Positions 34,958 through 63,630 of a stretch of 64,000 bases of DNA are shown in pieces; positions within the stretch are counted from its first letter, which is position 1; every line of letters starts with the position of its first letter. The notes beneath the pieces were generated by a model that saw only the letters and a list, made by a program, of their open reading frames with translations, made no database searches and had not been told where the DNA came from. Origin of the DNA: Candidatus Harrisonbacteria bacterium RIFCSPLOWO2_01_FULL_44_18 (lineage in GTDB: Bacteria > Patescibacteriota > Minisyncoccia > UBA6257 > WO2-44-18); contig MHJJ01000014.1 in assembly GCA_001817915.1 (NCBI GenBank), positions 3,695 through 67,694 of the forward strand, given 5' to 3'. The translations under genes and the position numbers were made by a program.

Positions 34958-34966
34958 TATAATTAA

Positions 34967-37540: not shown

Positions 37541-37640
37541 GATTTCGATTCCCGAAACCGATAGTGGATTTCGGGAATCCAGCGGATTCCCGAAATCCCA
37601 AATTTAGGACTTATTATTGAAATATGCTATACTTAAATAT

Positions 37641-38111: not shown

Positions 38112-39010
38112 TAATTCAATCCGTTTTGCCATCTGTTTTTTTATTTGTTTTTGGCCTTGGCATCGGTAGTTTTTTGAATGTTGTGGTTTTGCGTTACCAA
38201 GTTAACCAGCGGCTTTTTGATTTTAAAATCATTGGCGGCCGCTCTTACTGCCCGTTTTGTCAAAAAAAATTATCTTGGTATGAGTTAATCCCGCTGGCGA
38301 GTTTTTTGATTCAAAAAGGCCGCTGCCGGAGTTGCGGTCAGAAGATCTCTTGGCAATATCCGCTGGTTGAATTAGCAACCGGTTTGGCTTTCGCGTTTAT
38401 TCCAAATTATCTATACAAATTCTACGGCGTAGCAACAACGCTTTTAGCCAATCAAACAATAGCTTGGTATTATCTCTTGTTGGTAATCTGGATTTTAGCG
38501 GCCTTGGCTTTAATTTTGCTTTCGGTAATTGATTTCCGGCTTTCGATAATTCCCGATCAGATAAATTTATTCTTGGGTCTTTTGGGAATCGCGTCCATTT
38601 TTATAAAAGATCTTTTTGATAAATTCGGCCTGTTGGAAGGGTCGTTTCTAAAAAATTACGCTTTATTTTTCGGATTACGGGATAATATCTGGCTCAATCA
38701 TTTGTTTGCCGCGTTTTTGGCGGCGGCGATTTTTGGCGCGATAATTTTTTTGAGCCGCGGACGAGGAATGGGGATGGGGGATTTAAAATTAGGAACGGCG
38801 CTTGGCTTGTTGTTGGGCTGGCCGGATATTTTATTGGCGTTGATTCTGGCGTTTGTTATCGGCGGAATTTTTGGCGCGGCTCTGATTTTGACTCGCAAAA
38901 AAACTATGAAAAGCAGTATTCCATTCGGCCCATTTATAGTTGCGGGCGTTTTTTTGGCAATCTTTTTCGGCCATCAAATTCTGGAATGGTACCTACATTT
39001 ATTGAATTGA
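38096..39010 (+). CDS. pilD: prepilin peptidase (A24 family) PilD
   Basis: 304 aa polytopic protein with Cys pairs CPFC..CRSC and a GMGMGDLKL aspartyl motif. Confidence 0.88.
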   Translation: MLNILIIQSVLPSVFLFVFGLGIGSFLNVVVLRYQVNQRLFDFKIIGGRSYCPFCQKKLSWYELIPLASFLIQKGRCRSCGQKISWQYPLVELATGLAFAFIPNYLYKFYGVATTLLANQTIAWYYLLLVIWILAALALILLSVIDFRLSIIPDQINLFLGLLGIASIFIKDLFDKFGLLEGSFLKNYALFFGLRDNIWLNHLFAAFLAAAIFGAIIFLSRGRGMGMGDLKLGTALGLLLGWPDILLALILAFVIGGIFGAALILTRKKTMKSSIPFGPFIVAGVFLAIFFGHQILEWYLHLLN

Positions 39011-39331
39011 TTTTGGGTTTGATTTTTGATGATTGAATGCGGGGTGTTTATTTCTGTTCACTACTATCTCATAAGATAGTGATAAGATAGCGATGCTTAG
39101 AGTATTTGTTTATGCTTACCACTATCTCGCGAGATAGTGGTGGGTGTGAAATACCATGATTTCACGTAATGGTCATATACGATTACCGCGAAAAATCCAC
39201 AGCCAACATTAGGTAAATTCGGTTTCGGCTATGACTGCGATGTCAAATCTTGTCGACAAAATCGCCAAGAGCAATATGGTTCCGAGCGACCCCGCGCAAT
39301 AATAGGCGGCGATGCGGAATCTAACGCCAAT

Positions 39332-39361
39332 CAAGCGCTTGTGGAAACACAAGCGCTTTTT
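39332..39361 (+). terminator. intrinsic terminator in the pilD to minor-pilin gap
   Basis: Stem aagcgcttgtg / cacaagcgctt followed by ttttt. Confidence 0.7.
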
Positions 39362-39399
39362 ATTTGTTTAGTCGCGTGAATTCAGTTAAAATTATAGTA

Positions 39400-44467: not shown

Positions 44468-46531
<2,064 letters not shown>

Positions 46532-46581
46532 TTACAACCGGGTATATTTATTTAGTTCATTGAAATCTTTTAGGAGCTACC

Positions 46582-46932
46582 GTGCGCATTGTAGGTCTAG
46601 GCAGACGGGCTTTGTTTCTTATCCCTTCAGTAAAAGTTTATAATCCGAAACATTCTAAGACTCGTCAAAGTATTGCCAAGACAATTCATAATTTCTTATT
46701 GGCGACATTCGGGGGTTATACTTGCGCCTCCGGAAATATTTACGGCTATTATAGTTCAGAGGCCGCGGAGTATGACGAATTGCGGGAGTTTCGAGTAGGA
46801 TTTAAAGAAGACGAAAAGAAAACAAAAGTTCCGCTTCTTCAAGAGTTTCTTGCAAAAATTTGTGAAGATATTGGCGAAGAGTGTATTTATTTGGAGTGCG
46901 GCGAAGACGCGATGTTGGTTTATCCGAGGTGA
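46582..46932 (+). CDS. hypothetical protein (first gene of an orphan pair)
   Basis: 116 aa with a GTG start behind AGGAG. No recognisable family. Confidence 0.45.
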   Translation: MRIVGLGRRALFLIPSVKVYNPKHSKTRQSIAKTIHNFLLATFGGYTCASGNIYGYYSSEAAEYDELREFRVGFKEDEKKTKVPLLQEFLAKICEDIGEECIYLECGEDAMLVYPR

Positions 46933-46934
46933 CT

Positions 46935-47378
46935 ATGGCTTTCTTGATTCAGTTTCAGCGTCGGGCGATTGAAAGCTTGAAATCGCATCTTTTTCGGCCG
47001 CGGCACGCGATTGAAGATATTCATCACTTGCGGTCAGTTATTTCGGGCAATTTCACCTGTGACGGAGTATCGCTTGACATACTGGGCGTGAGCAAGGGAG
47101 TCGGTACCTGCTCGGATATTCACGGAATGGATGTTTTGGTTTTGGGATGGAGTAAAAGTCATAGATGCCGCGCGGCCAACGAGATATCGCTTGAGAAGAT
47201 CAAGCGTTGCGCTTACGCGGTTCTATTGCGCCAAGCAACCGAAGAGGAAGCGAAAAGCCAGCATTTTGCTCCCGATGTCGCTGTTTTATGCGTTGAATTA
47301 TTGAGAATAACAGATATCGCGTCCGACTATACCAATTTTCAATCAACCGGCCTTTACGCTTGCTATGCCGCGATATAG
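46935..47378 (+). CDS. hypothetical protein (second gene of an orphan pair)
   Basis: 147 aa. The ATG lies 2 nt after the upstream stop and behind GAGGTG. No recognisable family. Confidence 0.45.
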   Translation: MAFLIQFQRRAIESLKSHLFRPRHAIEDIHHLRSVISGNFTCDGVSLDILGVSKGVGTCSDIHGMDVLVLGWSKSHRCRAANEISLEKIKRCAYAVLLRQATEEEAKSQHFAPDVAVLCVELLRITDIASDYTNFQSTGLYACYAAI

Positions 47379-47385
47379 TTTTTGC

Positions 47386-47447
47386 TAAACCCCCACACCA
47401 AATGAGTTTCAAGATTCTATAAAAACTCGTTATGGTGTGGGGGTAAA
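47386..47447. repeat. palindromic element family A, copy 3 (intergenic)
   Basis: taaacccccacaccaaatgagttt...aaactcgttatggtgtgggggtaaa has the same arms as the two tatD inserts. Confidence 0.9.
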
Positions 47448-47468
47448 CCCGCCTTCGAGCGGGTTTTA
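47446..47468 (+). terminator. intrinsic terminator
   Basis: Stem aacccgc / gcgggtt followed by tttt. Confidence 0.65.
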
Positions 47469-47509
47469 TTATTATTGACTAGTATCGCGGCTGGGAGTAT
47501 TTTTAAGAC

Positions 47510-48664
47510 ATGTTTATCACTTCGGAATCAGTTACCGAAGGCCATCCCGACAAGATGGCCGATCAGATTTCCGATGCCATTTTAGACGAAGTTTTAAGGC
47601 GCGACCCTTATGGCCGCGTGGCTGTTGAAACTCTTCTTACTAAAAATTTAGCGGTTATTGCCGGCGAGGTGACCACGCGCCATCGTTTTGACGCTGAAAA
47701 AATCGCGCGCAAAGTTATCAAAGAAATTGGCTATATCGATTCTGCCTATGGTTTTGATTCCAAGACTTCAAAAGTCCAAGTATTTTTAAATCAGCAATCG
47801 CCGGATATTGCTCAAGGAGTAAGTCAATATCGCGAGGAAAAACCGGAAAGCGTGGGCGCCGGCGATCAGGGCATTATGTATGGCTATGCCACGAATGAGA
47901 CGCCGGCTCTAATGCCGCTGCCGATTTTTTTAGCCCATAATTTAACTCGCCGTTTAGCCGAGGTTAGAAAAAAGGGAATTTTGAAATATTTAAGGCCAGA
48001 TGGTAAGGCGCAGGTAACAATTGAATATCAAAACGGCCGGCCCCGGCGAGCGCATACGATCTTGATCTCAACTCAGCACGCGCCGGAAGTGAAGCACGAG
48101 CAGATTAAAAAAGATGTTATCAATAAAGTAGTGGGCGCGGTTTTGTCAAAGAAATTAGTTGATAAAAATACGCGATTTTTGGTTAATCCGACCGGCCGTT
48201 TCGTAATCGGCGGGCCGGAAGGGGACACCGGTCTTACGGGGCGAAAAATAATCGTTGATACTTATGGTGGAGTTGCTTCTCATGGCGGCGGCGCTTTTTC
48301 CGGCAAGGATCCGACAAAAGTTGATCGCTCCGCCGCTTACGCCGCGCGATGGGTGGCTAAAAATATCATTGCCGCCGGTTTAGCCGATAAAGTCCAAACG
48401 CAAGTGGCTTATGCCATTGGCATTCCAGAGCCGTTGGCGGTGAATATTGATACTTTTGGCACGGGTAAAATACCAGACGAGAAATTGTCCGGAGTTGTCG
48501 CCGAAGTTTTTGATTTGCGCCCCGGAATGATTATTAAAAACCTGCGGCTCCGCCGGCCAATTTATCGCCAAGTGGCCGCTTATGGACATTTTGGAAGAAT
48601 TGATCTTGATTTACCCTGGGAAAAAACCGATAAAGTAGGGGAGCTGAAAAGACGGTTAAAGTAG
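47510..48664 (+). CDS. metK: S-adenosylmethionine synthetase
   Basis: 384 aa with the [30 protein letters not shown] and GGGAFSGKD motifs. Confidence 0.95.
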
Positions 48665-48681
48665 CGTCAATCCCGCGCCTA

Positions 48682-48751
48682 GGAGAGCAGGATTCGAACT
48701 AGCGTCAAATTTAGAAGAGAGAATTTGAGCCAAGTTCGAATCCTGCTCTCC
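48682..48751. repeat. 19-bp-stem hairpin related to N4 (probable metK terminator)
   Basis: Stem ggagagcaggattcgaact / agttcgaatcctgctctcc. The loop shares sequence with 24444-24713. Confidence 0.85.
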
Positions 48752-48810
48752 TATTATCCGCCTAAATGGCGGATTTTTGTTTTTGAATAAACAAGTTATA
48801 ATTAAACTTA

Positions 48811-49110
48811 ATGGCTGAAATTAACAAAAAATCCTTGGAGCATTTGGCCGATTTGGCGCGGTTGGAGCTTTCCGGAAAAGAAAGCGAGAGTTTTTTAGTT
48901 GATCTGCAAAAAATTCTTGATCATTTTAATGAATTGCAAGAACTAAACACCGAAGAGGTTCAGCCGATGACTGGAGGGACAATGTCTAAAAATGTTATGC
49001 GCGAAGACGAAATTTTTAAAGAAGACCATTACACTGATGCCGGAAAGTTGGCCGAGCAATTTCCTGAACGCCAAGACGGGTTTTTGAAAATACCCCCGGT
49101 GTTTGAATAA
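48811..49110 (+). CDS. gatC: Asp/Glu-tRNA(Asn/Gln) amidotransferase subunit C
   Basis: 99 aa. Contains LADLARLELSGKE...LQKILDHFNEL, typical of GatC, and sits upstream of gatA. Confidence 0.85.
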   Translation: MAEINKKSLEHLADLARLELSGKESESFLVDLQKILDHFNELQELNTEEVQPMTGGTMSKNVMREDEIFKEDHYTDAGKLAEQFPERQDGFLKIPPVFE

Positions 49111-49196
49111 ACTCCACCAATATGACTAATCAAGCACCAATATGCCAATATGCGAATTCGTATATTCGCGCTATATTCGTATATTAGTGAAGTTTT
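49111..49196. repeat. stop-to-start junction repeat (actccaccaatat family), copy 1
   Basis: Shares actccaccaatat..ctaatcaagcaccaatat...attcgtatattcgcgctatattcg with 63817-63893. Confidence 0.85.
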
Positions 49197-50672
49197 ATGC
49201 ACTTACACGATTTAACAATCAAAAAGTTCCACGAAGGTTTACTAAAAAAAGATTTTTCCGCGCTGGAAATAACGAAGGAATTTTTTGATTACATTGAAGT
49301 TAAGGATAAAGAAATTGGGGCTTATCTTTCCTTGGCCAAAGACGAAGCATTTTTGCGGGCCGAAAAAGCAGATTTAAAAATTGCCAAAGACGAACCGATG
49401 GACGCGCTGAGCGGGGTGCCGCTCGCGATCAAAGACAATATTTTGATTGATGGCCAGCCGGCTACTGCCGCATCTAAAATTTTGGAAAATTATAAGGCGG
49501 TTTATGACGCAACGGTAATTAAGAAATTAAAAGCCGTTGGAGCGGTTTTCCTTGGCAAAACTAATATGGACGAGTTTGCCATGGGTTCTTCGACAGAAAA
49601 TTCCGGATTTAAATTAACTAAGAATCCTTATGATTTGGAACGAGTTCCGGGAGGGTCTTCCGGCGGTTCGGCAGCCGCGGTTGCCGCCCATATGGCAGTG
49701 GCCGCCTTTGGTTCTGATACCGGCGGTTCAATTCGACAGCCAGCCAGTTTCTGCGGTGTTGTCGGATTAAAGCCGACTTATGGAGCGGTTTCTCGACATG
49801 GATTGATCGCGATGGCTTCAAGCTTGGATCAGATCGGCCCTTTTACGAAAACCGTTGAAGACGCGGCGATTTTATTTAAAACTATTGCCGGAAAAGATCA
49901 GTTTGATTCTACCAGCGTTGAAACAAATTATAATGATGAATTATTAAATCCAAAGCTTGAAGATGTTAAAAAACTGACCGTCGGTCTGCCGGAAGAATAT
50001 TTTATAAGCGGCGTTGAGCCAGGCGTCATTAAAGCAGTTGAATCGGCAATCAATCAATTCAAAAGTTTGGGGATTAATTTTAAAAAAATCAGTTTGCCGC
50101 ACACCAAATACGCCTTATCTTGCTACTATATCATTATGCCCGCGGAAGTTAGCGCCAATTTAGCTCGTTTTGATGGTATAAGATATTCCAAAATCCAAAA
50201 TCCAAAATCCAAAATCCAAAACTTGCTGGAATTGTATAAAAGACAGCGCAGCGAAGGATTCGGGCCGGAAGTGAAGCGAAGAATTATTCTGGGAACTTTT
50301 GTTTTATCATCCGGATATTACGATGCTTACTATGCCAAAGCGCAGAAGGCGCGCGCGCTGATCAAAAAAGATTTTGATGAAGCATTCAAAGAAGTAGATG
50401 TTATTCTTACTCCGGTCGCGCCAACGCCGGCATTCAAATTCGGAGAAAAAACCAGCGACCCATTGGCGATGTACCTTTCTGACATATTTACCATTCCAGT
50501 CAATCTTGCTGGCTTACCCGCTATTTCGATACCAGTGAAACAAGCGACAAGCGACATGTCGCGCGTCACAAGTCATAAGCCACTGCCTATCGGTTTTCAA
50601 TTGATTGGCAAACATTGGCGAGAGGCCGATATTTTGGGGATGGGGATGTTTTATGAAAGATTACAAATTTAA
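49197..50672 (+). CDS. gatA: Asp/Glu-tRNA(Asn/Gln) amidotransferase subunit A
   Basis: 491 aa with the amidase signature GGSSGGSAAAVAA..GSDTGGSIRQPA. Inserts at 50187-50221 and 50544-50570. Confidence 0.93.
   Translation: MHLHDLTIKKFHEGLLKKDFSALEITKEFFDYIEVKDKEIGAYLSLAKDEAFLRAEKADLKIAKDEPMDALSGVPLAIKDNILIDGQPATAASKILENYKAVYDATVIKKLKAVGAVFLGKTNMDEFAMGSSTENSGFKLTKNPYDLERVPGGSSGGSAAAVAAHMAVAAFGSDTGGSIRQPASFCGVVGLKPTYGAVSRHGLIAMASSLDQIGPFTKTVEDAAILFKTIAGKDQFDSTSVETNYNDELLNPKLEDVKKLTVGLPEEYFISGVEPGVIKAVESAINQFKSLGINFKKISLPHTKYALSCYYIIMPAEVSANLARFDGIRYSKIQNPKSKIQNLLELYKRQRSEGFGPEVKRRIILGTFVLSSGYYDAYYAKAQKARALIKKDFDEAFKEVDVILTPVAPTPAFKFGEKTSDPLAMYLSDIFTIPVNLAGLPAISIPVKQATSDMSRVTSHKPLPIGFQLIGKHWREADILGMGMFYERLQI
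50187..50221. repeat. heptanucleotide tandem repeat TCCAAAA x5 inside gatA
   Basis: Read directly; encodes SKIQNPKSKIQN. The same heptamer occurs x4 in pheT. Confidence 0.95.
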
Positions 50673-50688
50673 TTAAATTTGTAAAAAT

Positions 50689-51219
50689 ATGACAAACAAA
50701 GTTATTCAATTTTCAATTCAAGCCAGCGGGATTATTGGGAATTTTTTAGATGAAAATCTTCTCTGGCTGCGGATCGTTTCGTTTATTATTTCCGGCCTGC
50801 TTTTGTGGGGAATTATTTATTGTATTTTAGGCAGCAGTTATCTTAAAACTAAAACCGATCAGTGGATGGATTTTTTGGGAGTGGGAGACGTAGGCCGCCG
50901 CAGGCAGTTGCGCGGATGGAGACAAATTAAAAAGCGATTGAAAACCGACGAAATGACAAATTGGAAATTAGCGATAGCAGAAGCGGATAAAATTCTAGAC
51001 GAGATTTTTAAAATGAGCGGTCTGCGCGGGGAAACGACGGAAGATCGTTTTAAGCAAGTCGCGCCAACCCAACTTTCTAACATTGAAGAGATTATGCAAG
51101 CTCATAAATTGCGCGATCGGGTTATGCGCGAGCCGGATTTTGTTATTAGTCAGGAGGAAGCTGGAGCCGCCATTGCTATTTATCAAAAAGCTTTCAAGAA
51201 ACTTGGTTTGCTTGACTAA
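50689..51219 (+). CDS. hypothetical membrane protein
   Basis: 176 aa with one TM segment (WLRIVSFIISGLLLWGIIYCIL). Confidence 0.55.
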   Translation: MTNKVIQFSIQASGIIGNFLDENLLWLRIVSFIISGLLLWGIIYCILGSSYLKTKTDQWMDFLGVGDVGRRRQLRGWRQIKKRLKTDEMTNWKLAIAEADKILDEIFKMSGLRGETTEDRFKQVAPTQLSNIEEIMQAHKLRDRVMREPDFVISQEEAGAAIAIYQKAFKKLGLLD

Positions 51220-51296
51220 TATATAATAATTCCGCTAAAATTTCTAAAGTTCCTTAGTTCCTTGCGTCAAAGATTTATATAAAGGGAGGTGGCAGG

Positions 51297-51557
51297 ATGG
51301 CCGAGGACAGACCAGTGAATGTTGGTGTTACTATTATGGTTTTTTGTCAATTTAAGGGAAAACTTGCTCGCGCCTTTGTGTCCGAGGAAACGCATACGAG
51401 ATTAAGAAAGATAATTAATTATGGCCGGTTTGACGGCCGGAAAGAATGGAGTTTGGTAGGGATTTTGCGAAGGGCATTTACGTTATATGGCATTTCTGAA
51501 AACGCGATCAAAAAATATCTTGATGAGCTTGAAAGGAAGATAAGAGACGATAAATGA
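51297..51557 (+). CDS. hypothetical small protein
   Basis: 86 aa with a strong RBS, AAGGGAGGTGGCAGG-ATG. A terminator hairpin (cacccTAACgggtg + T-run) follows at about 51588-51610. Confidence 0.5.
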   Translation: MAEDRPVNVGVTIMVFCQFKGKLARAFVSEETHTRLRKIINYGRFDGRKEWSLVGILRRAFTLYGISENAIKKYLDELERKIRDDK

Positions 51558-51623
51558 GCGATGAACAGGGCCCAGCCGTAATTTCAAAACACCCTAACGG
51601 GTGCTTTTTGTTTCAGCAGTCTG

Positions 51624-51698
51624 CGCGGGCGGCCGGATTTGAACCGGTGACCTTCCGCGTGACAGGCGGACGCTCTAACCAGACTGAGCTACGCCCGC
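51624..51698 (-). tRNA. tRNA-Asp(GUC)
   Basis: GCGGGCG-TA-GCTC-AGTCTGGTTA-GAGC-G-TCCGC-CTGTCAC-GCGGA-AGGTC-ACCGG-TTCAAAT-CCGGC-CGCCCGC-G. Flanked by an 11-bp inverted repeat. Confidence 0.88.
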
Positions 51699-51728
51699 GC
51701 AGATTGCTGGAATACCTTTGTTAATATA

Positions 51729-53078
51729 CTATTTTTTAATTTGTTTTACAATTTTTTTGAATTTTCTTCCGCGATCTTTATAATCTTTGAACATGTCAAA
51801 ACTGGCGGCGCCGGGAGAAAAGACGATAGTAACTGGCAATCGGTAATCGGCAATTAGAGACTTCGCAGTTTTATATGCAATTTTAATAGCAGATTCTAAA
51901 TTGCCGCCTTTTCTAATTACTATTTTCTGGTTACTAATTACTGAGGCTATTTTATTTTTATTTTCGCCAAAAAGCATAACAGCTTTGACATTGCAGGCTT
52001 TTTTAATGGCATCGGCAAGAGGTTTATAATTGAGATTTTTATCTTTTCCGCCGGCAATCAAAATGGTTAATTGGTTTGTTGATTGGCTGGTTATTTGGTT
52101 ATTAGAAAAGGAAAGAACGGCGGCGGCGGAAGTTTGCGGATTGGTGCTCGCGGAATCATTGTAAAAATCTATTCTAGAATTCATTCCAACGTTCTTAAGA
52201 ACGTTGGAATGAATTTTTATACCGCGGACGAATTCCAGCCGATGCTCTATTCCTTTAAATTCCGCGATTGTTTTATCAATGATATGGTCGGGACAGTCCA
52301 GATTTTGGGCGATTGCTTTTGCCATCGCGGCGTTTTTTTGATTATGATCGCCCGGGATTTGCAGACCGGGTAGGCCAATGTTTTCCGGAGAAACGGGGAT
52401 TTTTCGAGCAGGCGATTGATCGGCAATCCATTTTGAAAACTTGTTATCAGAGGAATAAAATATCTTATCTTGTTTTGAATTCTGAAAACGGCCGATGTTA
52501 GCTTTGGCATTAATATATTCTTTGAAATTTTTGTGACTATCTAGGTGATCGGGGAAAATATCTAAAATCGCCGCCAATCGCGGAGATTTCGCGAGGTCTT
52601 GGAGTTGAAAACTAGAGAGTTCCAGAATAACCATTGTTCGAGAATCAATTTTTGGCAATATTTCCAGCGCCGACTTGCCGATATTTCCAGCCAAGGCCGC
52701 CTTAAATCCGGAGTTTTTGAGAATTTGATAAAGCAATGTGGCAGTTGTGCCCTTCCCCTTGGTGCCCGTTATTCCGATGACGATTTGTCCGTGATGTCCG
52801 TGTTCAGTCCGCGTGGTTCCGTGAAGTTGTTCAAAGAACAACTTAGTGGCGCTGGAGAAACGAATCCCTTTTTTGATGGCGCGCTGAATCTGCGGTAAAT
52901 TGTACGGCACTCCCGGCGAGCGAAAAACAACATCAAACTTGTCGAGATTTTTTAAATAATTTTTGTCCCGTTTTTGATCCAGAATTTCAATTTTTGCTCC
53001 GCCATAAATCGGCGAGCGTTTCAAGAATTTGAGCGTTGATTTTCCTTCTATTCCAAAGCCCAGAATCGCGATCTTCAT
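51729..53078 (-). CDS. murD: UDP-N-acetylmuramoylalanine--D-glutamate ligase
   Basis: 449 aa with the Mur ligase P-loop GITGTKGKGTTATLL. Contains a 36-bp perfect palindrome in frame. Confidence 0.88.
   Translation of the reverse strand: MKIAILGFGIEGKSTLKFLKRSPIYGGAKIEILDQKRDKNYLKNLDKFDVVFRSPGVPYNLPQIQRAIKKGIRFSSATKLFFEQLHGTTRTEHGHHGQIVIGITGTKGKGTTATLLYQILKNSGFKAALAGNIGKSALEILPKIDSRTMVILELSSFQLQDLAKSPRLAAILDIFPDHLDSHKNFKEYINAKANIGRFQNSKQDKIFYSSDNKFSKWIADQSPARKIPVSPENIGLPGLQIPGDHNQKNAAMAKAIAQNLDCPDHIIDKTIAEFKGIEHRLEFVRGIKIHSNVLKNVGMNSRIDFYNDSASTNPQTSAAAVLSFSNNQITSQSTNQLTILIAGGKDKNLNYKPLADAIKKACNVKAVMLFGENKNKIASVISNQKIVIRKGGNLESAIKIAYKTAKSLIADYRLPVTIVFSPGAASFDMFKDYKDRGRKFKKIVKQIKK
52179..52214. 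repeat. 36-bp perfect palindrome inside murD
   Basis: attcattccaacgttctt|aagaacgttggaatgaat is 12 codons and encodes IHSNVLKNVGMN. A diverged copy lies at about 54665-54700. Confidence 0.95.
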
Positions 53079-53131
53079 ATTTACACAATATACAAAAAAC
53101 TCGCCCGTGGCGAGTTAGAGATAGCTAGAAT

Positions 53132-53566
53132 CTAGATAATTCTTTTTACTAAAACCACCGGATGTTTTGTTCCGGGAACGGGTTTTATTTCTACGCCTCT
53201 TTTGCTTGAACAATGAGTCATGTGCCTGTTTCCGATATATATTGCCACGTGGCCAATCAGCAATTCCCGATTGTCTAGAATAACTGTCCGAGGTCTGTGT
53301 CCTTTGAAAAACAATAAATCGCCGATTTCCCAAAGTTCGGGATTGCCAACCGCGACTTCTTTTCCGCAAAGTGCCTGAAGATTGGAACTGCGCGCCAGAT
53401 TGATTCCGAATTTTCCAAATATATATTTTACGAACAAGGAGCAATCGAAATAATTTGGCGTATCCTCGTTTTTCGCGCCGTATTTATAAGGCCTACCTAA
53501 CAGCTTAACTGATTCCAGGATTATTTTTTTCTGGATATTTCGTTTCGGCTTTTCGCTGGGCGTCAC
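53132..53566 (-). CDS. NlpC/P60 (C40) family peptidoglycan peptidase
   Basis: 144 aa. The nucleophile context is YFDCSLFVKYIF, followed by IGHVAIYIG..H. Confidence 0.8.
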   Translation of the reverse strand: MTPSEKPKRNIQKKIILESVKLLGRPYKYGAKNEDTPNYFDCSLFVKYIFGKFGINLARSSNLQALCGKEVAVGNPELWEIGDLLFFKGHRPRTVILDNRELLIGHVAIYIGNRHMTHCSSKRGVEIKPVPGTKHPVVLVKRII

Positions 53567-53616
53567 CGGTGCCTCTTTAAAGGGCTAATTATCATTTTAT
53601 CGAGACCCCATAAGGC

Positions 53617-53646
53617 TTGTCAATCGCAAGGATAGTTTGATATAAT
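53617..53646 (+). promoter_or_regulatory. sigma70-like promoter TTGTCA-18-TATAAT for the tRNA-fMet/Met cluster
   Basis: TTGTCAatcgcaaggatagtttgaTATAAT ends 5 nt before the tRNA 5' end. Confidence 0.6.
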
Positions 53647-53651
53647 ATTCT

Positions 53652-53723
53652 CGCGGGGTAGAGAAGTAGTATCTCGCAAGGCCCATAACCTTGAGATCGT
53701 TGGTGCAATTCCAACCCCCGCAA
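53652..53723 (+). tRNA. initiator tRNA-fMet(CAU)
   Basis: CGCGGGG...CCCCGCA-A with the C1:A72 mismatch and loop CCCATAA. The D-loop (AGTAGTA) and T-loop (TGCAATT) are atypical. Confidence 0.8.
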
Positions 53724-53742
53724 CAAAATTTTTACTTTAATT

Positions 53743-53809
53743 GCCGGCGTAGCTCAGCGGCACCCCGCACTAAAACAAGTTTAGTACGGGGCAAGGAGCG
53801 AGCCAAGAT
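53743..53809 (+). pseudogene. orphan tRNA 5' half with a hairpin inserted in the D-loop
   Basis: GCCGGCG-TA-GCTC-AGCGGCA, then hairpin ccccgcactaaa/tttagtacgggg, then CAAG-GAGC-G-AGCCA... No 3' half was found downstream. Confidence 0.45.
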
Positions 53810-53884
53810 GGCTGGGTAGCTCAGTGGTAGAGCAGGCGTTTCATAAGCGCCAGGTCGCGAGTTCGATCCTCGCCCCAGCCACCA
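53810..53884 (+). tRNA. tRNA-Met(CAU) elongator type (or Ile2, if the anticodon is modified), CCA encoded
   Basis: GGCTGGG-TA-GCTC-AGTGGTA-GAGC-A-GGCGT-TTCATAA-GCGCC-AGGTC-GCGAG-TTCGATC-CTCGC-CCCAGCC-ACCA. Confidence 0.88.
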
Positions 53885-53966
53885 AAATTTGTGATGCCCC
53901 CTTGTTTTATTGCTGTCAGTCTACTAATCTAAGTCCGTACTTTGAAAAGTCATTTTTGGAGGGAAC

Positions 53967-54317
53967 GTGGCGGAGCAATTGGTGTGGGTAGGATTTACGG
54001 CCATCCTTTTTCTTGTCGGACTTTGTGTATTGGGCGCCATTTTGTCAATTGAGAAAAAGTCAAAGCGATACGCATCTTTGGCCGCCCTTTATTTTTTTGT
54101 TTGCGGTATGGTATGCGTTTTCGCGGGATTAGTAACTGCGATGCCCTGGTTTAAATTTTTTATGATGTTGGCGGCCGGGTGTAATCTTATTTGGGGGATA
54201 GAATATGTGCGGCAATATCATAAGGAAAGTAAAAAGGCTTCGCTACCATGTCCCGAGGAAAACCGCGAAAAGCAAAAGACGAATCAGGGCGCGGAGCATT
54301 TTGATAGATACGCGTAA
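53967..54317 (+). CDS. hypothetical membrane protein
   Basis: 116 aa with a GTG start behind GGAGGG and 3 TM segments. Confidence 0.5.
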   Translation: MAEQLVWVGFTAILFLVGLCVLGAILSIEKKSKRYASLAALYFFVCGMVCVFAGLVTAMPWFKFFMMLAAGCNLIWGIEYVRQYHKESKKASLPCPEENREKQKTNQGAEHFDRYA

Positions 54318-54356
54318 GCTTGGAAAGGAGGTGGGATCATAACAGCCACGACTGCT

Positions 54357-54542
54357 ATGGCCGTTTCAGTTGCAGTGATTCTCGTTATATCTATCGCGGC
54401 AACCTTACTTTTCAGACATAGTCGCAGATTACACCTTTTTTGCGGTGTTCGGGATTTGATGTTTGCCGGTTTGTCTTTTCTGTCATTCGCGATTCATAAT
54501 TTTCACTGGCTTTGGTCTTGGGTCCCTTTATATTTTTTTTGA
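54357..54542 (+). CDS. hypothetical small membrane protein
   Basis: 61 aa with 2 TM segments. AAAGGAGGTGGG lies upstream, with a spacing of about 20 nt. Confidence 0.4.
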   Translation: MAVSVAVILVISIAATLLFRHSRRLHLFCGVRDLMFAGLSFLSFAIHNFHWLWSWVPLYFF

Positions 54543-54625
54543 TATCAGGCTTACTGCAGTTGCGTAAAGGAATGGAATCTCCACCAGTATGCGCAGTATG
54601 CAAAGAGTGCACCGACGGTAAAATT

Positions 54626-54649
54626 AATCCCCCTAATTAGGGGGATTTT
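54626..54649 (+). terminator. intrinsic terminator
   Basis: Perfect palindrome aatccccctaattagggggatt followed by a T-run. Confidence 0.75.
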
Positions 54650-54831
54650 ATAATTTTGGAAAATGACTTCGGTGTTTATTCCAATGTTCTTAAGAACTTG
54701 AGAATAACCTTTAATTTCTATATACTTCTATTTCACAATCGAGACATAGAAGTACAGCTTATAATATAAAGAAAAATAATTTATCATCAGAAGAATTCGT
54801 ATTTTCCTCCAAAAATGTTAAAATAATAAGC

Positions 54832-55977
54832 ATGGATATTCAAGATTTACGACATTCTTTTCATCACGAGATCAAAGGCGTTAAAGACGCAAAAACCCTT
54901 GAGGGGTTTAGAATAAAGTATTTAGGGCGCAAAGACGGCGAGCTTACTAAAATTTTGCGTTCACTGAAAGATTTGCCGTTGGCAAAAAAGAGAAAAATTG
55001 GTCCTGCCGCCAATAATTTGCGAAAGGAAATCGAAGTCGCTTTAGAAGCAAAACTTAAGGAGCTACAAACTACAAACTACAAACTACAAACTAGAATTGA
55101 TGTTACTATGCCCGGCAAAAAGATTCCGGTCGGGCATCTTCACCCGCTGACTTTGATGGAAAATAGAATTCGGGAAATTTTCCGCGGTTTGAATTTTTCC
55201 GTTGTTGAAGGCCCGGAGATAGAAACCGAACATTATAATTTTGACGCTTTAAATATTCCGGCTAATCATCCAGCTAGGGATATGTGGGACACCTTTTGGT
55301 TAAAACTTTCTGCCAACGGCGGAAAGTTCGCCCAACCAGATTTGCGAAGCAAATCTGGTTTAGGGCTAAAAACGCAGACTAACGCAGAAAAAATTCCGCG
55401 TGAGTCCGCGTCAAGTCCGCGTGTGTCTGCGCTGTTAAGAACTCACACCAGTCCGATGCAGATTCGTTATATGGAAACGCATCGGCCGCCGTTTCAGATA
55501 ATTGTGCCCGGACGAGTATTTCGTTATGAGGCTACTGACGCTTCCCACGAAATCAATTTTCATCAAGTTGAGGGTTTGATGGTCGGAGAAAATATCAATC
55601 TGGCTAATTTTAAATATATTATTGAGGAATTTTTCCGCCAGCTTTTCGGCGCCGGCACGCATATCCGTTTTCGCCCAAGTTATTTTCCGTTTGTCGAACC
55701 CGGTTTGGAAATAGACATTCTCCTTGACAGGAGCGCAGAAGAACGCGGACTATACGCAGACCAACGTGGAAAAAGTCTGCGTGAATCCGCGTGGTTGGAG
55801 GTGATGGGCGCGGGAATGGTGCATCCCAATGTTTTTCGAGCCGTTGGTTATGATTCCAGAAAGGTCCAGGGTTTTGCTTTCGGTTTGGGCATAGAAAGGC
55901 TGGCGATGATTAAATATAAGATCCCCGATATACGATTGTTCTACTCGGGAGACCTGCGTTTCATTAACCAGTTTTGA
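54832..55977 (+). CDS. pheS: phenylalanine--tRNA ligase alpha subunit
   Basis: 381 aa. Class II motifs include HPARDMWDTF, LLRTHTSPMQIR and FPFVEPGLEID..GAGMVHPNV. Three repeat-derived inserts. Confidence 0.93.
   Translation: MDIQDLRHSFHHEIKGVKDAKTLEGFRIKYLGRKDGELTKILRSLKDLPLAKKRKIGPAANNLRKEIEVALEAKLKELQTTNYKLQTRIDVTMPGKKIPVGHLHPLTLMENRIREIFRGLNFSVVEGPEIETEHYNFDALNIPANHPARDMWDTFWLKLSANGGKFAQPDLRSKSGLGLKTQTNAEKIPRESASSPRVSALLRTHTSPMQIRYMETHRPPFQIIVPGRVFRYEATDASHEINFHQVEGLMVGENINLANFKYIIEEFFRQLFGAGTHIRFRPSYFPFVEPGLEIDILLDRSAEERGLYADQRGKSLRESAWLEVMGAGMVHPNVFRAVGYDSRKVQGFAFGLGIERLAMIKYKIPDIRLFYSGDLRFINQF
55063..55090. repeat. heptanucleotide tandem repeat CTACAAA x4 inside pheS
   Basis: ctacaaactacaaactacaaactacaaa encodes LQTTNYKLQT. 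Confidence 0.9.
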
Positions 55978-56084
55978 TGAATGCCACGATGAATTATGAG
56001 GCACGAATTATGAATTATGCAGCATGAATTTTAGCCGAAGGCCATCCTTGATTCATAATTCCTAATTCATAATTCAACAAAACA

Positions 56085-58055
56085 ATGAAATTTTCCTACA
56101 CATTATTAAAAAAACTGGCGCCCGTTATAAAAAGCTCCGAGCAACTGATGGAAGCCTTAGCTTTTCATGCTTTTGAAGTTGAAAAAGTTGATGGCGATGT
56201 TATAGACATCGTCATTCCTGCTAATCGTTATTCTGATGCCGCCTCGCATTATGGGATGGCCGTGGTAGTGTCGGCAATTTTAGGCAAAAAAACGCCAGAA
56301 TTAAAACTGCCGGCGCTAAAGTCTAAAGCGCAAAGTTTAAACTTCAAAGTTGGCATTGATTCCAAAAAGCTTTGTCCGCGTTACAGCGGACTTTATGCCG
56401 AGATTAACAAGATTGGTAAATCTCCCGAGTGGATGCAAAAAATTTTAATTTCCTGCGGTTTGCGTCCAATTAACAACATCGTTGACGTGATGAATTATGT
56501 GATGCTGGAAATAGGACAACCATTACACGCTTTCGATTTTGACGAAATAGAAAGCGTGAAATCCAAAATCCAAAATCCAAAATCCAAAAATATTGTCGTT
56601 AGATTAGCAAAAGAAGGCGAAAAAATTGAAACAATTGATGGTGGCAAATATGACCTCGATGTAAATGATTTAGTAATAGCGGATGAAAAAGGGGCATTAG
56701 CGATTGCCGGGGTAAAAGGCGGAAAGCGCGCCGAGGTTTCTTTAAAAACTAAACGTATTATTGTTGAGGCGGCGAATTTCGATTCGGTTAGCGTTTACAA
56801 AACTTCTCGGCGGCTCAATTTATTCACTGATGCTTCGGCGCGCTTTTCTCATGGACTAGCACCCGTGTTAGTTGAAAAGGGGATTAAGAGAGCGGCTCAG
56901 CTTTTGAAAGAAGTTTGCGGCGCCAGATTGGGCGATTGGCTCGATGTGAACTATGTGAAGCCGAGTAAAACGATTATCAAGTTTGACGTGGAAAGATTTA
57001 ATAAGTTGACCGGACTTAGTTTAAGCGAAAAAGCGTGTTTGGAATATCTTAAAAAATTAGGATTTCAAGCAAGGGGCAAATTTATTGAGCCGCCGGCTGA
57101 ACGGACCGACATTTTGATTTTCGAGGATTTAGCCGAGGAAATTGTTAATCTTTATGGGTATGACCGGTTGCTTTCGGTTGTCCCGCGCGCGCTCTTGAGC
57201 CCTTCTGGAGCGGAAGATCAAATAGTTCTTAAAGATAAAATCAGAAGCATTCTAACCGGCTTTGGCTTGAGTGAAGTTTATAATTATTCTTTCATCGGAG
57301 AGCCTGATCCGAATCTACAAAATAAATTTTCATTGGTGGAGCTGGTAAATCCAATTGCCGATGATAAGAAATACCTGCGGCCCAGTTTATTTCCTCACTT
57401 GACTAGAAATATCGAAGAGAATTTTCGGTTTTACGATGAAGTAAGGATTTTTGAAATCGGTCGCGTTTTTGCGAAGGCAAGCGGCAAGAACGGTATAGCA
57501 AGCGGCATTAATGAGCAATTGAGTTTGGGGATCGCATTGGGGCTTAAAAAAGGCGCGCCATTTTTGGAGTTGAAAGGAATTGTTGAACAAATGCTCGGAC
57601 AAGCGGGCTTAGTTGATTATTTTACAAAAGAAGACGGCGAAGGTCGTTTACGGCTTGAATCCGATCATCGCACGCTCGGGTATTTAATTGCCAAAGACAA
57701 TAAAGCCCTTGCGGAAATTAATCTTGATGAATTGCTTCAATTGGTGGTCGGCGAAAAAGAATATAGGCCATTGCCGAAATATCCATCGGCGACGCGCGAT
57801 CTTTCATTTATGGTTGACGCTGAAGCGAGAGTAGCCGCGATTCAAAATATTATTGAAAATACCAGCCATTTACTCGATGACGCCGACTTATTGGATTGGT
57901 ACGAAGACCCGAAACTTGGCCCGAATAGAAAAAGTCTTACTTTTCGATTAGTTTTCCAAGCCGAAGATCGAACTTTAACCGATGAGGAAGTCGATCAAGA
58001 GTTAGGCAAAATTGTAGCCAGTTTGAAGGAGAAGTTTGATGTAGAATTAAGATAA
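56085..58055 (+). CDS. pheT: phenylalanine--tRNA ligase beta subunit (short form)
   Basis: 656 aa with B3/4, B5, core and C-terminal FDX-ACB-like regions. Directly follows pheS. Confidence 0.9.
   Translation: MKFSYTLLKKLAPVIKSSEQLMEALAFHAFEVEKVDGDVIDIVIPANRYSDAASHYGMAVVVSAILGKKTPELKLPALKSKAQSLNFKVGIDSKKLCPRYSGLYAEINKIGKSPEWMQKILISCGLRPINNIVDVMNYVMLEIGQPLHAFDFDEIESVKSKIQNPKSKNIVVRLAKEGEKIETIDGGKYDLDVNDLVIADEKGALAIAGVKGGKRAEVSLKTKRIIVEAANFDSVSVYKTSRRLNLFTDASARFSHGLAPVLVEKGIKRAAQLLKEVCGARLGDWLDVNYVKPSKTIIKFDVERFNKLTGLSLSEKACLEYLKKLGFQARGKFIEPPAERTDILIFEDLAEEIVNLYGYDRLLSVVPRALLSPSGAEDQIVLKDKIRSILTGFGLSEVYNYSFIGEPDPNLQNKFSLVELVNPIADDKKYLRPSLFPHLTRNIEENFRFYDEVRIFEIGRVFAKASGKNGIASGINEQLSLGIALGLKKGAPFLELKGIVEQMLGQAGLVDYFTKEDGEGRLRLESDHRTLGYLIAKDNKALAEINLDELLQLVVGEKEYRPLPKYPSATRDLSFMVDAEARVAAIQNIIENTSHLLDDADLLDWYEDPKLGPNRKSLTFRLVFQAEDRTLTDEEVDQELGKIVASLKEKFDVELR
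56562..56589. repeat. heptanucleotide tandem repeat TCCAAAA x4 inside pheT
   Basis: tccaaaatccaaaatccaaaatccaaaa encodes SKIQNPKSK. Confidence 0.95.
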
Positions 58056-59104
58056 TGAAAACATTACGACTAGTTTTACTTCTGGTGTCAGTTGGCATAC
58101 TGGCTTTGGCTGGGGGAGTGTTCGCGCGGTATGGCTATGAAAAGGTTTCGGTGGCGCGCGCGCAAAAGATAGTTCAAAAATCAACCGAGCGTTTGTCGGA
58201 AATTAAGTCTTTTGAATACTCGGCTAAAGCAAAAATTGAGCAAGCTGGGCCCCCGCTTCCTGGGACTTCGGCAGTAATCGCGATAGACGGCGTTTCGGAT
58301 TTTAGTAGCGCGCAGAATCCAAAAAGCCGTTCTCTCTTGACTGTAATGCCCGAAAGTTTTCAGACGACCCTTTTGCCAAAAGACGCAGTTATAAGTTTAG
58401 AAACTAGACATTTGGGGAAAATTTATTATTTGAGACTAGCAATATCACCAGAGCTACTTCCCTTCTTACCACTCCAACTTCCCAAAGATTGGATTAAAAT
58501 TGATTTCGAAGAAGCGCGAAAATCACTTTTACCAAGTTTACCGGGCGTCCCGAAGGGCGCGGAGCAGGTGCGATTGTCCGAAGAGCAAAAAGCTAAACTT
58601 AAAGAGATTATTATCAAAGCCAAGCTTTTAAAGATAACGGCGGTTTTGCCCGGCGAAAAATTGGACGACATAGACACCTACCGCTATGGATTTGTAATAG
58701 ACAAAAACGCCCTTATAGATTTTGCCTGGCAGTTAATAGCATTACAGTTAGAGCTTATGCAGCAAATACAACCAGATCAGCCGGTTGATAAAGAAGCCCT
58801 GGGAAAAGCCAATGCCGATTTTAGAAAAAAGCTGGAAGAGCAGTTAGCGCTAATTGTAATGCCTAAAGGTGAAATATGGATAAGCAAAGCTGATCTTTTG
58901 CCCCGCAAAATATCTTTAGTTTGGGAGCCGACATTTCTTGGACAGACTACACCGACCGGTAAACTGGGCATAGAATTTATCTTTAAAAGTTTTAACCAAC
59001 CCGTAGAAGTACAAATTCCTTTTCCGACGAAATCACTTGAAGAAGTTATGGGGGCGCTTTTTGGCGATTTCTTTGGAGGTATTCCAGCCCCATTAGTAAA
59101 ATAG
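58055..59104 (+). CDS. hypothetical membrane-anchored protein
   Basis: 349 aa with an N-terminal TM segment. ATGA overlap with the pheT stop. Confidence 0.6.
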   Translation: MKTLRLVLLLVSVGILALAGGVFARYGYEKVSVARAQKIVQKSTERLSEIKSFEYSAKAKIEQAGPPLPGTSAVIAIDGVSDFSSAQNPKSRSLLTVMPESFQTTLLPKDAVISLETRHLGKIYYLRLAISPELLPFLPLQLPKDWIKIDFEEARKSLLPSLPGVPKGAEQVRLSEEQKAKLKEIIIKAKLLKITAVLPGEKLDDIDTYRYGFVIDKNALIDFAWQLIALQLELMQQIQPDQPVDKEALGKANADFRKKLEEQLALIVMPKGEIWISKADLLPRKISLVWEPTFLGQTTPTGKLGIEFIFKSFNQPVEVQIPFPTKSLEEVMGALFGDFFGGIPAPLVK

Positions 59105-59157
59105 TCCATAGTTTGTAAACTAATTTTGACATAGAATTGCGACAGAGAGTTGTCGTT

Positions 59158-59216
59158 TCCCAATATCCTTGAGTTGTCATCGAGTTGCCATCTCCCAATA
59201 TCCTTGAGTTGTCATC
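59158..59216. repeat. 24-bp direct repeat x2 (tcccaatatccttgagttgtcatc), 11-bp spacer
   Basis: Copies at 59158-59181 and 59193-59216. The spacer gagttgccatc resembles the end of the repeat. Confidence 0.9.
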
Positions 59217-59251
59217 TCCCGTTATGCGCGCTATAGCGCGCATAACGGGAG
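59214..59251 (+). terminator. 38-bp perfect palindrome plus T-run (terminator-like)
   Basis: tctcccgttatgcgcgcta|tagcgcgcataacgggaga followed by tttt. A second hairpin (gccgcca/tggcggc + tttt) lies at about 59271-59294. Confidence 0.65.
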
Positions 59252-59303
59252 ATTTTAAGTAAATTAATTTAGCCGCCAATTCTGGCGGCTTTTGCGTTAA
59301 TCA

Positions 59304-59549
59304 TCATTCGCGTTCATCATCGGATTTTTCTTGTTCTTCGGGATCAATTCCAATTAGTTCAAACTTCCTTTTTTCAAGCTTTTCCAGCGCCTCAATCAAC
59401 GGCATATCCATTTGTAAAAATCCTTTTTCAATGTGCCCTGCGCAGATTTTAAGAAATCTATCAATCCATAAGGCTTCATGGAGGGCGTCTACCGCTTTTT
59501 CTTCTTCTTGCTTAAAAAATTCATCCGCTTCGCGATCTATGTTGCCCAT
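59304..59549 (-). CDS. hypothetical acidic small protein
   Basis: 81 aa. RBS GGAGGTGGCAG sits before the ATG. Confidence 0.5.
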   Translation of the reverse strand: MGNIDREADEFFKQEEEKAVDALHEALWIDRFLKICAGHIEKGFLQMDMPLIEALEKLEKRKFELIGIDPEEQEKSDDERE

Positions 59550-59688
59550 CTGCCACCTCCTTTCTATACCTATAGTCTAGTTTAATCCATTATAACTCAT
59601 AAAATCAAACGGAATTAAAATCTTGCATTATTGCGTTAATTATGTAAAATTATCACAGTTCTTTACAACCACAATTTAGAGGTCAACG

Positions 59689-59949
59689 ATGCATTTCAAA
59701 ACCGCGTGTCTGCTGGCAGTCGGCCTTATGGACGTTGTTACTTTTAGCTGGGCGATACATATTCATAGAACCGAACTCCATTCTTTCAAAGAAGATTTGT
59801 TATTCGGCGCCGCCGCGTTTTTTGCCCTGTTATTTTTCGCGATTATGTCCAGCCATAGATGTTGTAGGTCAAGGTGGAGGTCAAGCAAGAATACAGAGAA
59901 TACAATCGGCCGCGACGAGTTTTGCCGCGTGGAGAGTAAATATGGCTAA
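59689..59949 (+). CDS. hypothetical small membrane protein
   Basis: 86 aa with 2 TM segments. Confidence 0.4.
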   Translation: MHFKTACLLAVGLMDVVTFSWAIHIHRTELHSFKEDLLFGAAAFFALLFFAIMSSHRCCRSRWRSSKNTENTIGRDEFCRVESKYG

Positions 59950-60232
59950 GAGATCAGGTGGTCAAAGGCTTTGTTTGCGTTGCGGCAAAGCAAAAGTCGC
60001 TTCTTGCAGAATTACTCGTGACCTCTGTTTGGAAATTGAATTGATTTTAAGGCGAGATCCTCAGTTGCCGCAGAGAGTCAAGAGATCATTGAACGAGATA
60101 GATAAAAGATTTTATTGGACTCTTAAAAATGGTGTTTTATACCCCTCCGAGAAGCTGGCAAAAAGAGGCGAAAAACCTCACAAATTGCTTAGCGGCGGCC
60201 GCGCTTCCAAGAAAAGATCGCCAAAACACTAG
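59942..60232 (+). CDS. hypothetical basic protein with a CxxC pair
   Basis: 96 aa beginning MAKRSGGQRLCLRCGKAKVASC. Start chosen inside the longer ORF 59735-60232. Confidence 0.4.
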   Translation: MAKRSGGQRLCLRCGKAKVASCRITRDLCLEIELILRRDPQLPQRVKRSLNEIDKRFYWTLKNGVLYPSEKLAKRGEKPHKLLSGGRASKKRSPKH

Positions 60233-60319
60233 CCAGCCAAATCAGGTTGGTTTTTTATTTGTTTTTGACGATGAAATTTGCTATAATTAAATAGTCTTAA
60301 AAGAGGTCTATTTATTAAA

Positions 60320-63553: not shown

Positions 63554-63630
63554 GAACGGAGAGGTTAGATGCGACAGATGGGGGTTGGGGGTTGACAATT
63601 CATCAAAAATTTACTAAAATATAAAATAAT

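Follow-up and report, generated by a model that had tools for sequence, protein, structure and literature searches.

A stretch of 64,000 nucleotides (64 kb, called the window throughout) was analysed from a metagenome-assembled genome of Candidatus Harrisonbacteria, a lineage of the Candidate Phyla Radiation (CPR, or Patescibacteria) from the Rifle aquifer. In this window, tandem arrays of seven-base units lie within the reading frames of essential genes, including gatA, pheS, pheT, leuS and ligA. From their distribution, their variation between strains and their recurrence in related species, we conclude that they are probably heptanucleotide microsatellites made and kept homogeneous by replication slippage, and filtered by reading frame, by stop codons and by the length of the loops they encode.

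Heptamer arrays in the window

Arrays were called with Tandem Repeats Finder, with an exact scan and with a mismatch-tolerant scan (Table 1). Period 7 is the sole over-represented tandem period in the window. At period 7, five exact arrays reach three or more copies, as compared with none at period 5 or at periods 8 to 15, and the mismatch-tolerant scan returned seven arrays at period 7 and none at other periods except 14, which is a multiple of 7. Fifty third-order Markov simulations of the window yielded approximately zero period-7 arrays, as compared with the seven real ones; Tandem Repeats Finder reported about 18 period-7 arrays. At least eight different units are present.

All the heptamer arrays listed in a first-pass annotation of this DNA, which was made from the sequence alone, are present, either exactly where it had placed them or shifted by 1 to 3 nt, and its description of them as genuine in-frame repeats within essential genes is borne out. 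According to NCBIfam, the host genes are leuS, ligA, gatA, pheS, pheT and a GT4 glycosyltransferase gene. The same annotation had overlooked the AACAACT array of 15.3 copies, the second leuS array, the degenerate ligA array, the GGCAATC array and the arrays at 5886–5961 and 55989–56076. The AACAACT array, which is predicted to be unstructured, provides the stop codons of both convergent genes that flank it. For two of the arrays, counterparts were found in other species: a peptide similar to that of the TatD-like gene, AASHLPLATR, occurs at a GatA site (site 2, described below), and the position equivalent to the MurD-like site carries three copies of CTCATCA in L007.

Table 1. Heptamer arrays of the window, with their positions, strands and locations.
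Unit and copy number	Position	Strand	Location and remarks
AATTACC x4.4, perfect on coding strand	1157–1187	-	GT4 glycosyltransferase, NYQLPITNYQ
inverted pair (ATTTAGG)n/(CTAAATT)n	5886–5961		hairpin upstream of glyS
weak ACTAGCC-type array, 69% matches	12579–12611	+	TatD-like gene
AAGTTTC x4.0, 90% matches	15544–15571	+	leuS aa 250; hot spot
AATTACT/AATTACC x4.4, one T to C	17048–17078	+	leuS aa 751, QLLITNYQLLI
AACAACT x15.3, perfect	29351–29457		between convergent P-type ATPase and comF genes; polymorphic
AGTTACC x2.9	32748–32767		short intergenic array; unit one base from AATTACC
degenerate GTAAAAT-type array, 80% matches	46074–46100	+	ligA aa 535
GCGACAA GCGACAA GTAACAA GCGACAA (x4.3)	46277–46306	+	ligA aa 601, HhH-BRCT linker
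TCCAAAA x5.0, perfect	50187–50221	+	gatA aa 331–342, SKIQNPKSKIQN; GatA hot-spot site 1, coil loop
GCGACAA x2.4, then palindrome GCGACATGTCGC	50540–50556	+	gatA aa 448–461; GatA hot-spot site 2
GGCAATC x2.9 (sense strand GATTGCC)	51835–51854	-	MurD-like ligase gene
CTACAAA x4.4, perfect	55063–55093	+	pheS aa 78–87, end of N-terminal coiled coil; polymorphic
inverted pair (ATGAATT)n/(AATTCAT)n	55989–56076		hairpin between pheS and pheT
TCCAAAA x4.4, perfect	56559–56589	+	pheT aa 159, KSKIQNPKSK; hot spot

Unit number changes between close strains

Near-identical strain contigs, about 150 kb in total, were aligned to the window, covering positions 1–17420, 23458–39373 and 45101–64000. These alignments contain 14 substitutions and only two indels, both of which are whole heptamer units: a loss of one unit in pheS and a difference of 11 units at 29351–29457. 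In the first case, contig L087 aligns with the window over 18.9 kb with zero mismatches and a single 7-nt gap, which corresponds to one lost CTACAAA unit. In the second, contig L121 is 100% identical to the window over 6.7 kb save for the AACAACT array, which has 4 units as compared with 15; five further contigs terminate inside this array. Since the only indels of the strain contigs are whole-unit changes, the arrays are hypermutable by unit number, and whole units change far faster than bases are substituted.

The expectation of the first-pass annotation that a change of one unit would frameshift the host gene is realised in L087, in which the pheS array has 3.4 copies instead of 4.4 and the gene is split into ORFs of 103 and 289 aa. 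Frequent frameshifting variants, which the annotation had named as a sign against its reading, were found only in part: such a variant exists, but it is not frequent, being present in one of about 16 pheS contigs.

A length-variable spacer upstream of the window was considered as a further array and rejected. This spacer, located about 2.4–2.8 kb upstream of window position 1 between an NYN-domain gene and a HAD hydrolase gene, varies among L090–L093 through the duplication or insertion of a tRNA gene in L092 and a scaffold gap in L090.

Heptamer-encoded stretches in orthologous proteins

We searched 357 GatA, PheT and LeuS proteins of related species for stretches of at least nine residues that match exactly what a perfect heptamer array encodes when it is read through all three frames, using an exhaustive necklace census of units. 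Such stretches were found in 46 of the orthologs (13%), at 60 sites and with 34 units, and the reversed-sequence control gave no heptamer-encoded sites. The equivalent test at periods 4, 5, 8 and 10 gave 0, 0, 3 and 0 sites, respectively, so that among non-triplet periods only 7 and 8 were seen in these orthologs. The 60 sites fall on 14 hot spots in the three proteins, and the five sites that the window has in these proteins are all included. The hot spot at aa 559 of LeuS is occupied in 12 species by 10 different units.

Per 100 kb, the window has 12.5 arrays, as compared with 8.6 for the Harrisonbacteria-like clade and 4.0 for other CPR loci. In non-CPR bacteria the density is 0.9 per 100 kb (1.14 Mb, sampled around gatA), and the window arrays are about 10 times denser than in this control, which consists of loci from a GatA scan of contigs that was dominated by a universal motif and that mostly returned distant phyla. 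At the CPR loci, 16 arrays of period 7 were counted, as compared with 0 to 4 for each of the other periods.

The same protein sites carry different units in related species

GatA has two array sites. At site 1, the loop after the DGIRY motif, period-7 arrays occur at the same codons in four other species. Three of them match the window in both the 35-nt length and the register, with the units TCCAAAG (degenerate), TCAGGAA/TTAGGAA and TCTCAAA, and in the fourth, the loop is 6 nt shorter and its unit is of the GCGACAA type. The encoded peptides are wholly different among species (SKIQNPK, GIRNQEL, RISNLKS), and in non-CPR bacteria the loop is aperiodic and 27 nt long. At site 2, between the SIPVK and LPIGFQ motifs, the basal loop has about 5 aa; it carries AAAGCTC x3.9 in L104, which adds 7 aa, and AAGTATC x4.3 in L100. 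Site 1 of L100 and L109 carries an array of period 8, AACTTAAA x3.6, of which three units make 24 nt and remain in frame.

At aa 601 of LigA, the linker between the HhH and BRCT domains has an equal length in all species examined and contains an orthologous array of four in-register units. The unit is GCGACAA in the window and in L005, GTATCAA in L007, GCGTCAA/GCTTCAA in L100 and GAGACAA-like in L108, while the units of L106, L107 and L115 are unrelated to these. When compared at matched unit positions, unit identity in LigA is 0.74 within arrays versus 0.40 between species, and in GatA it is 0.83 versus 0.57; array-free controls gave 0.38 and 0.39, that is, no difference. A change of three positions in all four units calls for homogenisation, and the array has therefore evolved in concert within an essential gene while its length stayed constant.

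The sites are indel-rich in ortholog alignments, and the arrays are not all of one kind with respect to length. The first-pass annotation had expected that the alignments would confirm the arrays as insertions. This is the case for pheT, where the array is a lineage-specific addition of 11 aa at a point where most relatives carry a single Gly, for gatA site 2, which is 10 aa longer than in Aquifex GatA, and for ligA aa 535, where the clade has an insertion of its own of about 14 aa, occupied by perfect arrays in other species. It is not the case for either leuS array, for ligA aa 601 or for pheS, which show zero net insertion relative to their relatives. The loop at gatA site 1 is 3 aa longer than in Aquifex GatA (3 to 4 aa by another of our counts). 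The annotation had also envisaged that orthologs might conserve the peptides without the nucleotide periodicity; at leuS aa 751, however, the ortholog peptides are themselves heptamer-encoded with other units, KLEIGNWKL, SLVIGHWSLV and QLSVVSCQL being exact three-frame translations of other heptamers.

An origin of the 4.4-copy arrays from one pre-existing unit by a single in-frame gain of three more, which predicts an addition of 7 aa relative to relatives, was rejected as a general rule. It fits GatA site 2 of L104 and perhaps the PheT protein P0139, and it fails for the window arrays of pheT (+11 aa), gatA site 1 (+3 to +4 aa), and leuS and ligA aa 601 (zero).

Constraints on arrays within genes

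A census of 400 kb of CPR DNA gave 30 arrays, of which 27 (about 90%) are inside ORFs. On the sense strand, the units are composed of 48% A and 10% G. All but two of the 27 coding arrays are free of stop codons in the three sense frames, and 17 of them would hold stops if they were read antisense. In the leuS array at aa 751, the lone base that departs from the consensus turns a would-be in-frame TAA into CAA. The coding arrays are 20–45 nt long, with a mode of 31–32 nt, and the longest array, with 15 units, is intergenic. In the AlphaFold model of GatA, which has a mean predicted local distance difference test score (pLDDT) of 80.5, both array sites are coil with a pLDDT below 50. Within genes, as these data show, arrays persist only where a housekeeping protein has one of a small number of tolerant loops or linkers, only in an orientation and sequence that are free of stops in all three sense frames, and only at total lengths that keep the frame.

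Origin of the arrays

Judging from the whole-unit indels between strains, replication slippage is the most likely generator of the arrays. Slippage would add or remove whole units, and short-tract conversion within or between arrays may contribute, with selection then removing those variants that break the frame, bring in stops or produce a loop of unfit length. Homogenisation at constant length could proceed through compensating pairs of one-unit losses and gains, passing through transient frameshift alleles such as that of L087; alternatively, it could proceed through in-frame jumps of three units or through other multi-unit jumps, and large jumps do occur, given that the array of L121 differs by 11 units. 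The period itself would reflect a property of the replication machinery, following a proposal of the slippage literature (PMC4679880, PMC4692102), which places a 7-nt contact with the polymerase behind the heptamer preference. The preference for four to five units, without G-quadruplex potential, argues for the dynamics of heptamer repeats rather than for the formation of G-quadruplexes. Beyond acting as flexible hydrophilic spacers, the arrays would have no selected function in the proteins.

Several observations weigh against slippage as the whole explanation. On its own, it leaves unexplained the recurrence of units across genes and species above a composition-matched null, and also the homogenisation at constant length, given that in an essential gene every step of one unit shifts the frame. 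That essential genes keep perfect arrays, although these must impose a mutational load, could be a hint that the arrays are selected for. In a rough neighbour-joining tree, the array-bearing GatA loops are scattered, so that both a recurrent origin and a shared ancestry are possible. In addition, the 15-unit AACAACT array has an equal copy number in at least four assemblies, and its instability is therefore not extreme.

The recurrence of units is the basis of a reading in which arrays are copied between loci by ectopic gene conversion, template switching or a small mobile element, so that the permissive loops of each genome would be seeded from a small set of units. The first-pass annotation had favoured this reading, stating that the same unit in unrelated genes implies spread. 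In the window, TCCAAAA is shared by gatA and pheT, AATTACY by the glycosyltransferase gene and leuS, and GCGACAA by ligA and gatA; GTATCAA occupies both ligA sites in L007, and GCGACAA-like units occupy both in L005. Across the clade, the recurrence is significant, with 10 identical unit pairs among the 27 coding arrays versus 1.4 expected (P ~0.001). The GCGACAA peptide occurs in 14 orthologs versus 0.03 in controls. For the cross-species vocabulary, permuted-unit controls were rejected as contaminated, since permuting an A-rich unit yields other real units, and the necklace census took their place. The insertion of a whole array in pheT also agrees with copying. However, arrays with the same unit share no similarity outside the array and have neither terminal repeats nor target duplications, and the units are numerous, at least 8 in 64 kb and 34 in the clade. 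Within the window, units are shared only marginally more than a composition-matched null predicts (P ~0.06, and P ~0.14 for near-matches), and the word family of TCCAAAA is about fourfold over-represented as single words, which makes local seeding from common words plausible. Mobile-element genes were not seen, and the window encodes no reverse transcriptase, integrase or transposase. An element resembling the Rickettsia palindromic elements (RPE) or miniature inverted-repeat transposable elements (MITE) was rejected, given that the arrays are not palindromic and that those with the same unit lack shared flanks. Spread by a mobile element is thus not supported, spread by copying is a weak candidate, and we regard templated spread as a whole as unlikely. 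Given the clade-wide recurrence, inter-array conversion or a sequence preference beyond composition may nevertheless be at work.

A functional reading would make the arrays contingency switches, in which reversible one-unit frameshifts toggle essential translation and replication genes and cause stochastic growth arrest, as a form of bet-hedging or dormancy, in an episymbiont. The repeats are indeed non-triplet and inside ORFs, a frameshifted pheS allele has reached the assembled consensus in one metagenome sample, and different species retain perfect arrays at shared sites although these are costly. Against this, classical loci of this kind are found in genes that are not essential, for surface structures or restriction-modification, and their repeat units are usually more numerous. 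Moreover, only one of about 16 pheS contigs is shifted, and the arrays lie in permissive loops of a generic kind, in many proteins that are unrelated, as mutation and tolerance predict. Reversibility and a benefit would be hypothetical, and we consider such switches very improbable. Scarcely more probable is a broader alternative, according to which there would be either reversible frameshift switches in pheS, pheT, leuS, gatA and ligA with a standing growth-arrested fraction, or a clade-specific heptamer-generating mechanism with a limited unit vocabulary. The periodicity could also be a by-product of selection on the proteins, if heptad-like peptides combined with biased codon usage gave a period of 7 nt, and at leuS aa 751 a peptide class Q/K-L-x-I-x-N-W/Y is in fact similar in many orthologs, without indels. 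Such a by-product is hard to reconcile with unit identity that is perfect at synonymous positions too, with peptides that differ wholly between species at the same site, with the existence of intergenic arrays, with whole-unit indels between strains and with the absence of matches in the reversed-protein control; we give it almost no weight. Least credible of all is an artefact of assembly or sequencing, which might be suspected from the several contigs that end in the long array and from the single-unit pheS variant in one contig. The arrays are not assembly artefacts, since the identical gatA, glyS and comF genes recur on 17, 16 and 22 independently assembled contigs, respectively, and the same arrays are present in independent JGI, ENA, NCBI and Logan assemblies. 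The coding arrays (at most 35 nt here) are also far shorter than reads and k-mers, and arrays occur in many other species. Slippage filtered by selection thus remains our preferred reading of the heptamer arrays.

Other repeats and gene features

Both intergenic inverted pairs of Table 1 form long, AU-rich hairpins, with a dG of -28.9 kcal/mol (z -4.5) at 5886–5961 and of -26.3 kcal/mol (z -3.6) at 55989–56076. An Rfam scan of the window found tRNAs only, with no family overlapping the arrays or these hairpins.

A second class of non-triplet repeats that stay in frame consists of GC-rich units of about 10–11 nt built on GCGGAC/GTCCGC. It occurs in glyS (7027–7063) and pheS (55395–55431), in opposite orientations, and also at GatA site 2 of L005 and L105. 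The pheS copy, EKIPRESASSPRVSAL, falls within a stretch of about 24 aa that is inserted as compared with the PheS of T. thermophilus, and a near-identical peptide, EKIPRESAAGPRQSA, is inserted in the GatA of another species. GC-rich palindromes or hairpins are inserted in frame at the loop hot spots of the heptamer arrays, namely at GatA site 2 of L102, L106, L107, L109, L111, L115 and L119 and at aa 78 of PheS in L107; L106 has CCCCGTTAGAAAT...ATTTCTAACGGGG, for instance, and L102 has GCCTGCCTGCCGGTAGGCAGGGCCTGCC. In the window, TCCGCCGAAGGCGGA is present twice at 10582–10611, inside the ORF at 9845–11344. These in-frame palindromes are reminiscent of Rickettsia palindromic elements. The GC-rich repeats and palindromes, a class found in the same genes as the heptamer arrays and separate from them, may represent in-frame miniature mobile elements of an RPE-like or MITE-like kind.

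Among the longer repeats of the window, a 46-nt unit forms a tandem pair (91% matches) at 31521–31614 and another at 35017–35110, 3.5 kb apart, and each pair is followed closely by a type II/IV secretion ATPase-like gene of the pilus gene cluster, upstream of which it lies. Tandem duplications of a 53-nt unit (x1.9) and of a 35-nt unit (x2.0) occur at 36180–36281 and 59147–59216, respectively. A 59-nt segment is present twice, inverted and with 96.6% identity, at 48679–48737 and 24658–24716, with one copy downstream of the S-adenosylmethionine synthetase gene. Two genes have unusual architectures: gyrB (60320–63553) encodes 1077 aa and carries an intein, as the Pfam entry Intein_splicing among the annotated genes of L087, an identical strain contig, indicates, and PheT (56085–58055) first matches the bacterial PheT model at position 156 and is without the N-terminal domain of about 155 aa.

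Relation to known repeat systems

The window arrays have the defining features of heptanucleotide long simple sequence repeats (SSRs): they are longer than expected by chance, their period is 7 and they are polymorphic by whole units. The first-pass annotation had held that heptameric repeats are known mainly from heterocystous cyanobacteria. This is too narrow, given that they have also been described in Xanthomonas, Nostoc, Beggiatoaceae and Bacteroidetes and are the commonest class of long SSRs. In agreement with its other remark, that it was aware of no description in this kind of genome, we found no literature linking CPR bacteria with SSRs.

The canonical units of the short tandemly repeated repetitive (STRR) sequences are CCCCAGT, TTGGTCA and CAACAGT, in heterocystous cyanobacteria. 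An identification of our arrays with STRR sequences was rejected, both because the units differ (TCCAAAA, CTACAAA, AATTACC, GCGACAA, AACAACT and others) in a host that is Candidatus Harrisonbacteria, and because the arrays are not predominantly intergenic, 27 of 30 being inside ORFs. Together with the GGGNATC repeats of Xanthomonas and Nostoc, STRR sequences share with our arrays the dispersed occurrence of heptamers, often about four units, some over stop codons and some as inverted pairs (PMC4692102); they differ in that the units here are many, A-rich and G-poor on the sense strand, and mostly coding. The TAACTGA repeats of marine Beggiatoaceae, cyanobacteria and Bacteroidetes likewise have 2–6 copies and an orientation limited by the stop codons of the unit, and the paper that described them noted that translation in three frames gives a 7-aa repeat (PMC4679880). 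In that system a single unit is favoured and is mostly intergenic, upstream of start codons (PMC4679880), whereas here many units are found inside genes. Both the GGGNATC heptamers of Xanthomonas and Nostoc and the TAACTGA heptamers of Beggiatoaceae are mostly intergenic and under-represented in genes (PMC4692102, PMC4679880).

As summarised in two papers, heptanucleotides are the most abundant class of long SSRs in most prokaryotic genomes (PMC4679880, PMC4692102, citing Mrazek, Guo and Shah 2007). According to the same papers, prokaryotic long SSRs (5–11 nt) have head-to-tail units, a favoured period of 7, changes by whole units and a proposed origin by polymerase slippage, all of which are shared with our arrays, and the known cases come mainly from large or high-GC genomes, are mainly intergenic and favour units that are multiples of a triplet when in genes (PMC4679880, PMC4692102). 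In contrast, the arrays described here belong to an ultra-small CPR genome, about 90% of them are in ORFs, including those of essential genes, and orthologous sites carry lineage-specific units.

The tandem repeats of Borgs share with our arrays fast-evolving perfect repeats in ORFs, hydrophilic disordered segments, a bias towards A and breaks in assemblies, and they arise, as here, in particular genomes or lineages (PMC9879509). The in-ORF units of Borgs are all divisible by three (PMC9879509), whereas the unit here has 7 nt, the segment reads all three frames and a single-unit change is a frameshift. A classification as triplet amino-acid tandem repeats of the Borg type was rejected for this reason.

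Contingency loci belong to genes that are dispensable, for surface structures or restriction-modification, and their adaptive ON/OFF role is demonstrated, whereas the hosts here (leuS, pheS, pheT, gatA and ligA) are essential, and only formal features are in common. As compared with the tetranucleotide and heptanucleotide SSRs of Haemophilus (PMC2651432, PMC8262952), these are a non-triplet SSR that is in frame and an observed shifted allele. What is new in our arrays is the lineage, the intragenic place in essential genes, the recurrence at hot spots with lineage-specific units and the observed frameshift allele of pheS.

Implications

The proteins of CPR bacteria are known for lineage-specific insertions of unclear origin. 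Our results point to an ongoing mutational process that probably writes and rewrites loop and linker segments of CPR core enzymes, namely period-7 slippage under the constraints of frame and stop codons, whose signature is a peptide that reads all three frames of a heptamer. In practice, the arrays can serve as strain markers, and in CPR metagenome-assembled genomes they break contigs and lead to split-gene calls. They would also offer a natural system for studying how a microsatellite evolves in concert when its length is strictly constrained, for the mutational load of frameshift-prone tracts in the essential genes of minimal genomes, and for the long-noted preference for 7-nt units in prokaryotic repeats.

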